A DNA stretch of 64,000 nucleotides from a virus. Taxonomy: Duplodnaviria > Caudoviricetes. The first letter of the stretch is position 1. Every line of letters starts with the position of its first letter. The DNA is taken from IMG/VR virus record IMGVR_UViG_3300011947_000001, positions 18,103 to 82,102 of that record. One strand, given 5' to 3'. The notes under the pieces were generated by a model. That model saw nothing but the letters and a program-made list of their open reading frames with translations, did no database searches and was not told the DNA's origin. The position numbers and the translations under genes are program-made. Shown piece by piece: positions 3,381 through 56,213 of this stretch.

Positions 3381-3665
3381 TTACATTACTAAACGTTGAC
3401 CTTTATCAGTGTTGACTTTATCTGCTGAATCGATTACATATACACGATTGAATCGGTTAGCACACAAATAGTCATCACGACCTTTTTGTAACATGCGGTA
3501 AACATCTGGTGCACTGATTTCACGTGCATCACTGTCAGTTTGACGTTCCAACCAACGTTTACGGTTAGCAACAGTTTCAAAAGCGAATGCTTGTTCTTTA
3601 CCATTTACAGTTTTAACAGCATAAAAGTTGCGACCACTTGTTTTATTAACACTAACTTTAGACAT
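3381..3665 (-). CDS. Hypothetical protein
   Basis: 94 aa ORF with SD (AGGAGAG) upstream. Confidence 0.7.
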   Translation of the reverse strand: MSKVSVNKTSGRNFYAVKTVNGKEQAFAFETVANRKRWLERQTDSDAREISAPDVYRMLQKGRDDYLCANRFNRVYVIDSADKVNTDKGQRLVM

Positions 3666-46969: not shown

Positions 46970-47040
46970 CATTCTTTGTCAATCAATCCATCAGTGATTC
47001 CATGATCTATCACTTCTTCAATAAAATCTTTATATTTCAT
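46969..47040 (-). CDS. 23 aa micro-ORF consisting mostly of a CTS motif
   Basis: MKYKDFIEEVIDHGITDGLIDKE*; start overlaps the stop of paralog 6; followed by a terminator. Confidence 0.45.
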   Translation of the reverse strand: MKYKDFIEEVIDHGITDGLIDKE

Positions 47041-47779
47041 TTTTAAGTTTTTCCATAACGTCTTTTCTGAACTGATCCAATAATTTAAAGTTTATAACCA
47101 GACATTTACCTCCTATCCAAACCTCATTAGTGTGGTTCGTATCATCAGTTTTTGTAGTCACTACATCAAACTTTTTCAAGGTAAATACACCTTCAAGAAA
47201 TTTTCCGATTTCCTCTTTAGATTTATCATTCAATTCATTATAAAAATGGTCATCTTTTTGATAATTGTGTTTATATAATAAATCAACCAATTCTTCGAAT
47301 GAATCAACATGATCAACATCAATGTACATATTAAGTATCGTAGATACAATATCAACACTGTATTTCTTATATGAATTCATTTCCAGAATATCTTCATCAT
47401 CACACCTCATGATGGTAACTCCATCAAATGGAAAAATCGCATAATGATTAGGGCCATACTTCTTCATAATATCAGTCCCTTTAGAACCGATAGCAATGAT
47501 AGACTTACTACGCAATGGATAATTTAACTTTTGGGTTGTAATCTGATGATCGATCACGATATTATGATAGTTATAATTTGAAATAGATTTCCGGTTTCCT
47601 TTTTGACCTTCTAATATAGAAGCATCAAATTTTGCGCGGGCTGCACGACAATAATGATTATTAACGTCCATATCTTTACAATTTTTGATAAATATATCAA
47701 CCGCATCATCATAAGATATGGATGTTCTATAGCTGGATTCTTCAGTGTTTTCGAGTATTAGAAAATCTTGATATTTCAT
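47030..47779 (-). CDS. CTS-tagged ART-like protein, paralog 6
   Basis: MKYQDFLILE; YCRAA (variant), PLRSKSIIAIG, KYG, EVWIGGKC; CTTAAATA upstream. Confidence 0.7.
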   Translation of the reverse strand: MKYQDFLILENTEESSYRTSISYDDAVDIFIKNCKDMDVNNHYCRAARAKFDASILEGQKGNRKSISNYNYHNIVIDHQITTQKLNYPLRSKSIIAIGSKGTDIMKKYGPNHYAIFPFDGVTIMRCDDEDILEMNSYKKYSVDIVSTILNMYIDVDHVDSFEELVDLLYKHNYQKDDHFYNELNDKSKEEIGKFLEGVFTLKKFDVVTTKTDDTNHTNEVWIGGKCLVINFKLLDQFRKDVMEKLKNEI

Positions 47780-47903
47780 TGGCTTTTATTGGTTACTTTT
47801 TTCTATTTAAGAGAAAACCTTACTCTTTAGCCACATCTACAACAACACGATACCGTCTATAAAAACGCCAGATAATCAATAATGAGAATCTGGCGATACT
47901 AAA

Positions 47904-48230
47904 TTACTTCAATTTAATCTTTGCTTCGAAAACAAAACGATAGTTATCATCACATAAGACCTTTGCGCGTTCATATGTCGTCGCCATTCGTAGAACAGCA
48001 CCAGTATATGACACGATAGCGAAGACACAATCTTTTGAGTCTTCCGTGGCAACATCGCCAACTTTAAATCTAAATTTTCTGTACGTAAAACTTTCGTCAT
48101 ATGTACATAAGAATTGCGCCAAGGACTTCGAAAAGGTAAATCGCATGATCTTCCCTTCTTTATTCAAAATCCCGTAAATGCTTCGCTTGGAAGTCTTATC
48201 GATACAATTGCGACAAACCTAATGTTTCAT
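47904..48230 (-). CDS. Hypothetical protein with in-frame TAG at codon 4 (amber read-through candidate)
   Basis: ATG AAA CAT TAG GTT TGT CGC AAT TGT... in frame with ORF 47904..48167; AGGT SD upstream of ATG 48230; TAG at 48219-48221. Confidence 0.6.
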
Positions 48231-48258
48231 TTTATTTTACCTATTATAGTTTAGAATT

Positions 48259-48334
48259 TGGTGGCGACATATCAGATTCGAACTGATCCAACACGATTTT
48301 AGAGATCGCTGCACTACCACTATGCTAATGTCCC
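48259..48334 (-). tRNA. tRNA with CUA anticodon (amber suppressor type)
   Basis: GGGACATTAGCATAGTGGTAGTGCAGCGATCTCTAAAATCGTGTTGGATCAGTTCGAATCTGATATGTCGCCACCA; anticodon loop CT-CTA-AA, TTCGAAT loop, encoded CCA; one bulged G in the acceptor stem. Confidence 0.85.
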
Positions 48335-48509
48335 AAAATGTGAAAGGTTCACCCCTATACCCCAACAAATGCAAGATATCTGAACTCAACGCTATCACAT
48401 AGTGATCGGTGATACCCCTTGAAATATACTACTGATATTAGTCATTTCAACAAATATCACTCTGAACACTATTGATAGTAAACATATTTATCTTATATGT
48501 CAAATAAAA

Positions 48510-49655
48510 TTAATTATTTTTACCATCTATTTTATAAAATGCGTATGTGACATCAATATCACCCACATATTTAATCTTAATACCAGAATAATTGAAATAT
48601 GAACTTAACATTGTATTTCCCATCCTACGTAGAAAATAAGCCACGCTTGCATTAGTAGAATCCATCTTATCGGTAAACGAATCATCAGCAATATATTCTA
48701 GGTATTCTTCAACATCATTTGGCTTAACATATTTCTTCAAAGTTGTGCCAAAGAATTCATCACGATCGACCTTATCATAAATATCCATATTCAAATTTAT
48801 TGTATTTGAAAATTTCTTATTCACAATAACAGCTTCCCCACCATCCATATAATCATCTAATGTGTAATAATCATTATCATTCATCTTATACATTAGTTCA
48901 TAATCACCGCTGATGATTTCATCATAATATTTGACCAATGTATCATGTAAGGATTCTTTAACTACTAGGCACTTCCCAGCAATCCACATTTCGTTGAATG
49001 TATTGGCGCTGAATTTATCTTGTGTAAGGAATTTAAATCCTAGATGATCCAGATCGAACGCTTTTTTGATCCCAGCAAGTATATCGCCATCCTGTTTACC
49101 AAAAACAGATTCGAATCTATTCGCGTACTTAGAAGCGTCAAGCGATTTTAAACTACTGGCTATTTTGGAAATGGATTCATCGCCAATCTTAAATTTATTG
49201 AAATAATCATTCAAATCCTTGAATGTATAATCCCCAATTAGATCGACATACCAGATATCTTTTTCTGGAACTAAACCAATAACCACATCATCAAACGGAA
49301 TGATATTGTATACATCACCATATCGTTTAGCATAATCTTTACTATTCGAACAGATGATCGATTTACTACGTAACGGATATTTTGAGTCAGTTGATTTGAT
49401 CACTTCATCCATGATCACAGTATAATGATTGGTTGTATTTTCTGATTTACGGCCACCTTTCTGACCTTCTACAATACCAAAAACACTTTTATTTTTACCG
49501 CGCATACCACGATATATTGGCTTATTTACATTATATTTTTTGCAGTTCGACTTCAATATATTGATTGCAGTCTTGATATCGATCTTTTGATAATAATTTG
49601 ATTCGCCTGTTTCATCAGTCGCTTCGACCAACATCTTAAAATTTTTGTATTTCAT
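48510..49655 (-). CDS. CTS-tagged ART-like protein, paralog 7 (C-terminal extension)
   Basis: MKYKNFKMLVEA; IYRGM, PLRSKSIICSN, RYG, DIW, EMWIAGKC; CTTAAATA upstream. Confidence 0.72.
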   Translation of the reverse strand: MKYKNFKMLVEATDETGESNYYQKIDIKTAINILKSNCKKYNVNKPIYRGMRGKNKSVFGIVEGQKGGRKSENTTNHYTVIMDEVIKSTDSKYPLRSKSIICSNSKDYAKRYGDVYNIIPFDDVVIGLVPEKDIWYVDLIGDYTFKDLNDYFNKFKIGDESISKIASSLKSLDASKYANRFESVFGKQDGDILAGIKKAFDLDHLGFKFLTQDKFSANTFNEMWIAGKCLVVKESLHDTLVKYYDEIISGDYELMYKMNDNDYYTLDDYMDGGEAVIVNKKFSNTINLNMDIYDKVDRDEFFGTTLKKYVKPNDVEEYLEYIADDSFTDKMDSTNASVAYFLRRMGNTMLSSYFNYSGIKIKYVGDIDVTYAFYKIDGKNN

Positions 49656-53623: not shown

Positions 53624-54552
53624 TTTAATACCGTCTTGTTTACAATTTCTACTTGATCATTATCAAATACAGTCAACTCCCTGATGGAACCATTTTCCAA
53701 AAGTATGATTGCATCATAACCCCTTTTTTTAACTGATTCAGCATCAATCTTATTAACTGGTAGTTCATTCAACACCAGTGGGTTATCTATCATCAACTTA
53801 ACTTCATATATATAGATATCGCCATTTACACCAGTCTTTTTCATATGCATCTTTGGATAAACTTCGGCACGTTTCTTATTTGGAGTGAAATAAATTCCAT
53901 TACCCAACATTCCACTACCGACTTTAAATTTATCAAATTCTGTAACCGATCCGTGATATGCAATCATATGGTTATATTCAGTATTTTCATGAATATGATT
54001 AGATGTCACTTTAAATGTACCAAGGTTATCAATTGATTTTACCTGATTAGATTTAAAAACCGCCAATGTACCTTTCGCTTCATCACGAATATTGATTGAA
54101 TCAAACCCATCAGCGATTACTTTTTGTTGATACTTCTTACTTTCCGCATCTCCAAAATAGATAGGACGCTTACCTTTGATATTTCGGCAATTCAGGAATA
54201 CCTTATAAAGCTTCGAATCACCTTTCACTGTACCTCTACGTGCACCTTCTTCAGTCTTAGCAAAGAATAACAAACCCCGCCATGATGCTTTAAATTCAGT
54301 AAATTCAGCATCACTCACATGATAACAGATCAATGGTTCACCGTTTTCATCCAAAACCTTTGATGCATTATTTTTGTCATTTTCCCAATCACCAAACCAA
54401 TTCTTAAACGATTTAGTTCTAACCATCAACCACTGTTTTTCTGGAAGGTTAGACTTCTTCCCATTTGGCGCTTTTAGGTAATCCCCCGTATCTTTTAATT
54501 GCTTTAATAAATCGGTAATTTCCGATTCTACTAAGAATTCTTCAAATTTCAT
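53620..54552 (-). CDS. CTS-tagged protein with two ART-PolyVal-like domains (tandem paralog)
   Basis: MKFEEFLVES; near-identical N-terminal ~80 aa; YHVS...FFA and YHGS...GIYFT...NP...GYDAII...E domains. Confidence 0.8.
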   Translation of the reverse strand: MKFEEFLVESEITDLLKQLKDTGDYLKAPNGKKSNLPEKQWLMVRTKSFKNWFGDWENDKNNASKVLDENGEPLICYHVSDAEFTEFKASWRGLLFFAKTEEGARRGTVKGDSKLYKVFLNCRNIKGKRPIYFGDAESKKYQQKVIADGFDSINIRDEAKGTLAVFKSNQVKSIDNLGTFKVTSNHIHENTEYNHMIAYHGSVTEFDKFKVGSGMLGNGIYFTPNKKRAEVYPKMHMKKTGVNGDIYIYEVKLMIDNPLVLNELPVNKIDAESVKKRGYDAIILLENGSIRELTVFDNDQVEIVNKTVLK

Positions 54553-54693
54553 CATTTTACTCCAATATAGAAAAATGAATGTTTATGTTCATTCGAATAC
54601 AGATTTATCGAATTCCTTTTTCCAATTAGATTTATCAAATTCTTTGAACTCACCTTTTTCTTTCTTCTTATAATGATCATTCCAAACTTTTGA

Positions 54694-55071
54694 TCACACC
54701 AGCTTTTCTTCTATATTTAAGGCGATTTCATCCAATTCCATCTCACTTAAAGCATTATGCCAGTTTATAAATGGTATATTCTCAATTTCTTCATGTGACA
54801 TATTTTGAGTATCTATTAGAAATTCCCTTAATTTAATCAAAGCTGCTTTATATGGTGTCATATTAATCCCAATCGCATTTAAACCCATATGATCTTTAAA
54901 CATTATATATTTTGATGATAACCACCATGAATGACAGCCGTAATAGATGTTACCCGATTGATCCTGTAATTTAATAGATAAGCTATTACCACCCATGCCA
55001 AAAATATAAGCCAATTCATTTATAATATCTTTATGTTGTTCTTCAACAATATGCACTATAGATAAATTCAT
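54694..55071 (-). CDS. Tail-fibre-associated hypothetical protein
   Basis: MNLSIV...LSIKL...YYGCHSWW motif; ATGA coupling to the upstream fibre-like gene. Confidence 0.65.
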   Translation of the reverse strand: MNLSIVHIVEEQHKDIINELAYIFGMGGNSLSIKLQDQSGNIYYGCHSWWLSSKYIMFKDHMGLNAIGINMTPYKAALIKLREFLIDTQNMSHEEIENIPFINWHNALSEMELDEIALNIEEKLV

Positions 55072-56213
55072 CACCAAGCCCTCACATCAGTGTTCATTTT
55101 TTCACTTACAGCCAGTATTTCAGCATCCGTTAATTTTTTACCAATAAGAAGCATTTTGTATGTTACCCCAGCCCCCGATACTCCAATGAAATTTGGGTTT
55201 GGTATCCATGCTGTTCCAACATATGTAGCATTTTGAGCTATTGATTTTTGTTTATTGTGTATATTATTCAATAATTCCGAATTAGCATGATATCCACCAA
55301 ATATATTACGCAATGATGTGATACCTCCTTTTCGAGCTAAACTTGAATTTCTGTAACATAAAAGTGTAATCGCGCTAAAGAATGAATCATATGATGTTGA
55401 TACGACTACGCCACGATTGGTTGTTGGTAATGAAGGTGTATCCGATAAATAAAAGTTGAATGTAGAATTTTCTATAGTTAAAAATTTTTGGGAGAATAAA
55501 AATTGTACTGTCGTTGATACTAAAGCTGGTATAGATGCGTACATAAAATCATCAACGCCATCCCATACCAATCCATAAGCACCAGTTAACGCATCTTGAG
55601 TTAATTTAGGTTGTCTACTTACAGTAGGTTGAATCAAATTATTTTTATTTCCAGACTTATCTTTAATTAATCCAATAGTTTGACCAACTGCTGTTACTGG
55701 TATTGTCCCTGATGAGTCCTGAAATAAAGTTGTTAGATCATTTATATCGTAGTAAGCGCCTTCTGTACCAGTTGTAAATAGCTTTGTTATACTATCAACT
55801 GGTATAACTGGAAGTGTTAATTGTTTGGTTGAAGTAGTAGCGTTACCTGCTGCATCAGAAACAACTAATGTATATAAACCTTCCATAGCGGGTGCTGCAA
55901 TACTTGCTAAAAACGAACCATCAGTATTCAATATTACTGGAACTGAAGAATTATCTGGCTTTCTTAAAATTACTATCGCGCCCTTTTCACTTTTTCCAGT
56001 AAAGGTTGCACTTCTATCTGAATTTATTACTAAATCAAAATATTCTACTATTGGTGCTTTTGTATCGACTTCACCATATATAATAGAATTAATTTTAGAA
56101 GGATATTCTGAAAAAGGTGTAGAGTCACTGATGATTACACCTTTATTGGCAATCGCTGTTTTAATTTGGTTTTTAATTGTGATAATCGATCTTAATTTAT
56201 CTTCAATATTCAT
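55071..56213 (-). CDS. Virion structural / tail-fibre-like protein with Ig-like domain
   Basis: DTKAP...FTGKSEKGA...DGSF...Y...DAAGN.T Ig-like motif; DLTTLFQD..GTIPVTAVGQ..GL..DKSGN lectin-like head motif. Confidence 0.72.
   Translation of the reverse strand: MNIEDKLRSIITIKNQIKTAIANKGVIISDSTPFSEYPSKINSIIYGEVDTKAPIVEYFDLVINSDRSATFTGKSEKGAIVILRKPDNSSVPVILNTDGSFLASIAAPAMEGLYTLVVSDAAGNATTSTKQLTLPVIPVDSITKLFTTGTEGAYYDINDLTTLFQDSSGTIPVTAVGQTIGLIKDKSGNKNNLIQPTVSRQPKLTQDALTGAYGLVWDGVDDFMYASIPALVSTTVQFLFSQKFLTIENSTFNFYLSDTPSLPTTNRGVVVSTSYDSFFSAITLLCYRNSSLARKGGITSLRNIFGGYHANSELLNNIHNKQKSIAQNATYVGTAWIPNPNFIGVSGAGVTYKMLLIGKKLTDAEILAVSEKMNTDVRAW

Follow-up and report, generated by a model that had tools for sequence, protein, structure and literature searches.

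A conserved early in-frame stop codon beside a phage tRNA(CUA) gene suggests a translational gate on one small gene

A small phage gene with an in-frame TAG at codon 4 lies directly behind a tRNA gene with the anticodon CUA, and together the two probably form a translational gate, in which the production of one protein would depend on the phage's own suppressor tRNA. The window, the whole stretch of 64,000 nucleotides that was analysed, is part of an 82-kb viral record with a G+C content of 33% and an estimated genome completeness of 22%. The nearest public relatives belong to the Twarogvirinae and are T4-like Acinetobacter phages (Lazarus, Minot, AbTZA1, ZZ1, and Acj9), to which the nucleotide identity is about 75% around the locus of the tRNA and the gated gene. 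The initial annotation had proposed a local, suppressor-dependent switch. This proposal was supported by the conservation of the gate, of the tRNA, and of their linkage, by the coding character of the stretch behind the TAG, by the match between stop codon and anticodon, and by the lack of recoding elsewhere. The coordinates of the features are collected in Table 1.

Table 1. Features of the gated locus in the window, with the gated PTH2-like genes of distant loci in the last four lines.
Feature	Position	Strand	Remarks
Sigma-70-like promoter, TTGACA-17-TACTAT	48475..48503	-	10 of 12 consensus matches; stop of the upstream gene at 48510
tRNA, anticodon CUA (48302-48300)	48259..48334	-	ARAGORN and Rfam; A73, encoded CCA, surplus G in the 3' strand of the acceptor stem
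Shine-Dalgarno-like AGGT	48239..48242	-	8 nt before the ATG; stronger GAGGAA or AAGGAG there in relatives
Start and gate, ATG AAA CAT TAG (Met-Lys-His-UAG)	48219..48230	-	TAG at 48221-48219; next base G
Complete gated gene: 108 codons, with the TAG counted as sense, and a TAA stop	47904..48230	-	phrog_29342 models only residues 29-108
Inner ATG (Met29), preceded by GAAGGGAAG	48144..48146	-	database annotations all begin here (80 aa)
Intrinsic terminator, 8-bp G+C-rich stem CGCCAGAU/AUCUGGCG, then UUUUU	47861..47895	-	directly after the gated gene
PTH2-like gene	L039:3314-3643		gated by an early stop of the neighbour's type
PTH2-like gene	L063:3264-3629		gated by an early stop of the neighbour's type
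PTH2-like gene	L054:3693-4004		gated by an early stop of the neighbour's type
PTH2-like gene	L043:2280-2639		gated by an early stop of the neighbour's type

The frame had been described as Met-Lys-His-TAG and open thereafter. This held, as 104 sense codons follow the TAG up to a TAA at 47904-47906, giving 108 codons in total, and the CxxC reported behind the stop is present as C6 and C9. Throughout the 82-kb record, this locus is the sole case in which a start preceded by a Shine-Dalgarno (SD) sequence opens a frame that crosses a TAG into a long ORF, which argues that the arrangement goes beyond chance. The gap of 28 nt given between the tRNA and the ATG is correct when the tRNA is counted to its encoded CCA (48259). 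Promoter, tRNA(CUA), gated gene, and terminator outline one short transcription unit. The promoter is a weak candidate, namely a consensus match, and such sites are fewer in the region than in shuffled sequences. The terminator hairpin has a dG of -15.9 kcal/mol and a z-score of -5.3, and none of 200 shuffles was as stable; a pattern scan had missed it because of its long loop, and it was found by comparing folding energies with those of shuffles. The genes on either side of the module (47030-47779 and 48510-49655, minus strand) are paralogues, both of which match the N-terminal part of phrog_12810, a family without known function.

Four tRNAs were called in the window by ARAGORN, and the three others also encode their CCA ends. 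For the minus-strand interval 48263-48334, the program drew a cloverleaf with the anticodon CTA, in agreement with the complete cloverleaf and CUA anticodon of the initial annotation. The gene matched the Rfam model RF00005 over all 71 model positions with 48.9 bits (cut-off 29; E-value 1.8e-8), and its anticodon loop, CU-CUA-AA, has 7 nt with U33. The bulged G noticed earlier in the acceptor stem is there as well: the 3' strand reads AUGUC-G-CC-A-CCA, one base too many, and this might impair the tRNA of the window. The CUA tRNAs of relatives have an encoded CCA, the discriminator A73, and a 7-bp acceptor stem. The extra base may nevertheless be tolerated, because the same position is taken by a surplus U in a ZZ1-like relative. 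A second assembly of the 3' half of this tRNA, sought as a check on a sequencing error at the extra G, was not found. When 14 phage CUA tRNAs were compared, compensatory changes were seen in 15 of the 16 predicted stem pairs, and the T-CTA-A core of the loop was invariant. Judged by its sequence, the tRNA(CUA) is a real gene that is evidently kept by selection.

The nearest-neighbour comparison of the tRNA with 104 other phage tRNAs placed Met, Lys, Ile, and Gly about equally near; charging with Lys or Gln is a guess from the short variable arm, A73, and U35. Pyrrolysine tRNAs are atypical, with a short D-loop that lacks GG and a variable loop of 3 nt. This identity was rejected for the window tRNA, which is an ordinary cloverleaf with GG in its D-loop (AGUGGUA) and a variable loop of 5 nt. 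The likeness to the pyrrolysine system lies in the CUA anticodon, and the label 'tRNA-Pyl', as given by ARAGORN and in several GenBank records, reflects the anticodon alone.

None of the 14 Acinetobacter phage loci that were read has lost the TAG. In each of them an ATG and one or two variable codons (MKH, MNK, MT) lead to the TAG, [IV]-C-R-x-C comes after it, and a CUA tRNA lies on the same strand, 27-643 nt upstream of the first post-TAG codon. An alignment of five phages showed ATGAAACATTAG to be invariant and a good SD (GAGGAA, AAGGAG) to stand ahead of the ATG. Over the 24 codons from the TAG to Met29, the variable sites at codon positions 1, 2, and 3 numbered 10, 4, and 23, compared with 33, 20, and 73 in the 80 codons of the annotated coding sequence. 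The ratio of synonymous to nonsynonymous differences was 276:135 in the post-TAG stretch and 836:448 in the annotated part. Ahead of the gated ATG, by comparison, each of 30 bases varied. By the pattern of its substitutions, the post-TAG stretch is coding sequence in its mode of evolution. The initial annotation had named, as an argument against its reading, homologues that all start at 48167 or later and lack conservation upstream; the post-TAG codons were found to be under the same purifying selection as the annotated coding sequence.

This selection bears on an alternative explanation, according to which ATG-AAA-CAT-TAG is a leader mini-ORF that terminates, the protein is the 80-residue form begun at Met29 (48146), and the tRNA serves another purpose. 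Every one of about 70 phage records in GenBank gives the gene as 80 codons from Met29 or not at all, all database annotations take the inner start, and phrog_29342 is likewise a model of 80 positions. Moreover, the SD-like GAAGGGAAG before the inner ATG is good, and the gated locus L036 has an ATG right after its TAG and no tRNA in its whole record of 180 kb. The AGGT at the gated ATG of the window is weaker than this GAAGGGAAG, so that in the window phage the 80-residue form could be the main product. However, with the read-through protein as tblastn query, the matches spanned residues 1-108 in almost every one of 70 phage records, and the stretch before Met29, besides being under the selection described above, belongs to the predicted fold and to the internal repeat. 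Met29 itself is not conserved, being Ile, Val, or Tyr in many relatives. No ATG, GTG, or TTG is found between the gate and the conserved core in locus L011 and in the Klebsiella-type genes, which makes read-through the sole route to their protein. A leader mini-ORF also leaves unexplained the TGA gates of other phages, which pair with UCA tRNAs. We consider this alternative unlikely.

The structure of the gated protein was predicted by AlphaFold from 27 family members with a mean pLDDT of 92 and a pTM of 0.81. The model consists of two beta-beta-alpha-beta repeats (helices 7-13, 35-44, and 86-91; strands 17-22, 28-32, 49-60, 69-74, 79-83, and 98-107), of which helix 7-13 and the first strand, 17-22, are upstream of the annotated start. 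The internal repeat claimed from the sequence was recovered when the halves of the family were compared by hhalign (probability 96%, E-value 2.4e-9), with SKRSIYGILNKEGKIMRFTFSKSLAQFLCT aligned with SKDCVFAIVSYTGAVLRMATTYERAKVLCD and the first repeat beginning at residue 14, again upstream of the annotated start. BLASTP between the two halves gave no match. The match to phrog_29342 (E-value 1e-48) places residues 29-108 on profile positions 1-80 of 80 and leaves the N-terminal 28 residues outside the profile. Invariant in the family are the second Cys, two Arg, one Phe, and one Leu. No match to the window protein was obtained in Pfam (E ≤ 0.1), NCBIfam, or PADLOC, nor in a profile search of PDB sequences. 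With a best E-value of 0.2 for Foldseek against PDB and a best Z of 3.4 for VIA-align wide, no matching known fold was found, and BFVD returned uncharacterised phage proteins only, one of them from Klebsiella phage RaK2.

Homologues with about 33% identity were found by tblastn in Klebsiella phages of Stephanstirmvirinae and in one Alishewanella phage, and they have the same design. The gene lacks an annotation in the Klebsiella phages, where it reads AGGAGAAATAAA-ATG TCA TAG ACT AAT TGT (M-S-TAG) and a CUA tRNA abuts the gene end. The gene of the Alishewanella phage begins with MKRLK-TAG just after a tRNA-like element. This element (phage Slickus01, L017:2341-2411) has a 7-bp acceptor stem, a T-arm, and an encoded ACCA, lacks a D-arm, and carries CUA inside an 8-nt loop; its fold has a z-score of -2.1, and it was called by neither ARAGORN nor Rfam.

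When 1.8 billion representative proteins were searched by profile, 50 family members were obtained. At the second position ahead of the first Cys, their N-termini show either 'Q' or one of S, T, L, K, and F. The hit P0065 (1010 aa, 11 'matches') was discarded as a translated tandem repeat. The 'Q' of the database proteins of 107-134 aa (P0002-P0010 and others) is most likely a TAG translated by a code-15 gene caller, since the DNA of L011 reads MT-TAG-ICRNC and the near-identical P0008 reads MTQICRNC. Alignment of the homologues, which the initial annotation had put forward as a check, showed that the TAG co-occurs with a CUA tRNA in the Acinetobacter loci and that, where the gate is missing, its column is filled by S, T, L, K, or F. 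This variety implies that the inserted residue is unimportant and fits a regulatory stop.

To cover the family more widely, loci from IMG/VR and metagenomes, those of uncultured large phages included, were sought by subfamily and clustered at 60% identity. Among the resulting 19 clusters, 14 were gated by TAG, 2 by TGA, and 3 were ungated, and the stop of the gate was at codon 2-11. By default, any in-frame stop would be read as a nonsense mutation that arose by chance in a gene the phage can spare, and the initial annotation had allowed for a simple nonsense mutation. With the TAG retained in 14 of 14 Acinetobacter loci and in 14 of the 19 clusters, an early in-frame stop in 16 of the 19, and purifying selection on both sides of the gate, this explanation is refuted, and we assign it a practically negligible probability. 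From the three ungated clusters it follows that the gate is not obligatory; two of them still have a CUA tRNA.

A CUA tRNA or a CUA-bearing tRNA-like element was present within 4 kb of the gene in nine TAG-gated lineages. The two TGA-gated loci, L043 (M-T-W-S-TGA) and L113 (M-TGA), each had a UCA tRNA within 3 kb. There were no mismatches between the stop of the gate and the anticodon (Fisher p 0.018, with the lineages treated as independent). The available DNA of five TAG-gated clusters, that of L036 among them, contained no suppressor tRNA, which counts against the gate. The base after the gate was a purine in 21 of 21 loci (16 A, 5 G), and in E. coli a purine after the stop favours amber suppression. 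We infer that both the position of the stop at codon 2-11 and the purine behind it favour suppression over release.

Several loci of the family depart from the common layout. In three high-divergence lineages a tRNA called 'Ile(aat)' by ARAGORN directly follows the family gene (L042:4192-4266, L058:4303-4379, and L114:3800-3874); it has a 4-bp anticodon stem with C.A at the bottom. Compared with the family ORF, the sole SD-served short leader in each of these three loci (M-S-x…-stop, then C) reads in the +1 frame, and decoding there may involve a frameshift or some other unusual step. In L037:1398-1750 there is no N-terminal gate (SD-ATG-S-C-S-D-G-S-C), and an in-frame TAG stands at about codon 47, in the middle of the fold. 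Close to family genes there are two tRNAs with 8-nt anticodon loops (L066:527-597, 'tcta' in ARAGORN, and L038:5616-5692, 'ttgt'), of which the 'tcta' tRNA contains CUA and is 1.1 kb upstream of a TAG-gated gene. In one cluster (L055:1170-1175 and L111, about 3495-3500), the gate is codon 2 (ATG TAG), and the full protein then follows in frame.

The initial annotation had also stated that the genome as a whole is not recoded, and this was borne out in the 82-kb fragment, in the two complete genomes scanned for comparison (Lazarus and Klebsiella phage KP13-26), and in the two UCA-tRNA phage records, those of L042, with a TGA gate that is a candidate only, and L043 (G003 and G004, respectively). 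The genes of the 82-kb record end in TAA 70 times, in TGA 38 times, and in TAG 5 times, and no long gene in it is split by a TAG. Its ORF coverage of 0.854 under code 11 rose to 0.868 with TAG read as sense. Across this record, G003, and G004, the code-11 coverage was 0.85-0.95, and reading TAG or TGA as sense added little; TGA is an ordinary stop in both G003 and G004. A scan of Lazarus and KP13-26 for in-frame TAGs across the genome, as had been suggested, made the homologous gene alone stand out, with no other convincing gene with an N-terminal TAG.

As a second option, the initial annotation had considered a nascent reassignment of TAG, that is, an early stage on the way to a genome-wide 'code 15'. 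The rarity of TAG as a stop (5 of 113) and the AT-richness of the phage would agree with it, as rare TAG stops and AT-richness have been suggested as precursors of recoding by Borges et al. (bioRxiv 10.1101/2021.08.26.457843). On the other hand, neither the fragment nor the two complete relatives contained a second convincing gene with an in-frame TAG. A single gate retained at the same place down to 33% protein identity indicates a stable design rather than a transition, and we regard reassignment as very improbable.

A point against the gate is that a functional suppressor should lengthen the products of other phage genes that end in TAG, which number 5 of 113 in the 82-kb record, 12 of 231 in Lazarus, and 28 of 246 in KP13-26. 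It is conceivable that the gate is a side effect and that the main clients of the tRNA are elsewhere, among TAG-ended genes of the phage or the host or in the missing part of the genome. Just 82 kb of a genome with the low completeness given above are at hand, some phage genes do end in TAG, and a gated PTH2-like gene is found in other phages, so more than one client is possible. Against this, no other convincing client was found in the two complete relatives that were scanned, the extensions beyond the TAG stops are short and non-coding, and the linkage between tRNA and gene holds across very distant phages. We judge this explanation quite improbable, slightly more so than that of the leader mini-ORF. 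One stretch in KP13-26 stands apart (L035; KP13-26 54007-55341, minus strand): an ORF of 69 aa with a signal peptide has TAG as its stop, and the same frame then runs on through 374 codons that look coding, of which the initial 435 nt carry no annotation. This stretch could represent a non-canonical start or a second read-through client.

The favoured explanation is thus the gate on a single gene, and its proposed course is as follows. Ribosomes would initiate at the ATG with its SD (48230) and reach the UAG as the fourth codon. If a tRNA that reads UAG is lacking, release factor 1 would terminate translation after Met-Lys-His and the 108-residue protein would not be made. Once cut from the transcript and provided with an amino acid by a host synthetase, the phage tRNA(CUA) would decode the UAG, and the full protein would result, complete with the two Cys near its N-terminus and the strand that opens the two-repeat fold. 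The stop would in this way tie one protein to a working suppressor tRNA, which may serve as a time delay or as a check on tRNA function. Expression and charging of the tRNA and actual read-through are steps that we infer.

The setting of the gated gene points to a role in connection with tRNA or translation, an indication by association only, as the gene is nearly always inside phage tRNA clusters and has a gated PTH2-like neighbour in distant phages. The PTH2-like gene, of about 100 codons, adjoins the family gene in eight distant lineages; the neighbour in L039 matched PF01981 with 24.5 bits, just above the cut-off of 23 bits. The gates of the PTH2-like genes read M-I-TAG, MNKL-TAG, and MIDNQ-TAG, and MKQPLS-TGA in the UCA-tRNA phage L043. 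The PTH2-like gene is absent from the 82-kb record, Lazarus, and KP13-26, and no PTH2 chain was among the Foldseek or VIA matches of the window protein. A bolder version of the gate, which we offer tentatively and hold to be rather doubtful, is a switch that measures itself. The gated protein and the PTH2-like enzyme of other phages might exert feedback on the suppressor tRNA, peptidyl-tRNA, or termination, so that the gate would sense the balance between suppressor and release factor and set the level of read-through. Such a switch would be a tRNA-based counterpart of the autoregulation of prfB.

In several Acinetobacter phages, namely Lazarus, Minot, and ZZ1-type phages (L003:1855-2091 in Lazarus; also the loci L001, L002, and L013), the gated gene is followed by a gene for a 78-aa protein with an RF-1 domain, in which SGARRW stands where the catalytic loop would have GGQ. 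A search with PF00472 found no such RF-domain gene in the 82-kb record, and there was none in the distant loci; in the window, the gene at the downstream position of the relatives is replaced.

The locus gives the unexplained suppressor tRNAs of standard-code phages a concrete candidate client, one small and conserved gene, and a systematic annotation error is corrected, by which this gene is given as 80 codons or missed in about 70 GenBank phage genomes. If the read-through is true, the TAG is a natural one-codon translational switch, and the Acinetobacter and Klebsiella phages grown in laboratories offer a compact natural pair of tRNA and gate for studies of suppression versus termination. 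A literature search found no description of a stop-gated client gene beside a phage suppressor tRNA.

Among known systems, prfB, the gene of RF2, is autoregulated through an in-frame UGA at codon 26, which is bypassed by a +1 frameshift and is read by the gene's own product. As in prfB, an early in-frame stop would make the yield depend on termination versus alternative decoding. Here, however, the reading continues in frame past the TAG, without a +1 frameshift, and the putative decoder is a dedicated tRNA.

In stop-recoded phages, which carry suppressor tRNAs and 'code change modules' (Borges et al., bioRxiv 10.1101/2021.08.26.457843; experimental support in PMC9523058), a phage suppressor tRNA likewise lets in-frame stops be translated in a standard-code host, and control over the timing of the gated genes has been proposed for them. 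Those phages have many recoded late and lysis genes and often also encode a release factor or a synthetase of their own. In contrast, the window phage uses the standard code and has one small gene with one stop, which lies within the first 2-11 codons throughout the gated family, and no release factor gene was seen in the 82-kb record.

T4-type phages share with the window phage a tRNA island that can hold a UAG-reading tRNA. The amber suppressors of the T4 tRNA cluster are, in the passage of PMC8386662 that cites McClain (1970), laboratory mutants of sense tRNAs, whereas the CUA anticodon is here the conserved wild-type state and is accompanied by a conserved client gene. Suppressor tRNAs of standard-code phages have also been described with an unknown purpose, as in the case of the tRNA-Sup of Klebsiella phage phiKp24 (PMC8386662). 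No client gene is named there, whereas in the phages presented here a specific gated gene, its putative client, stands beside the tRNA.
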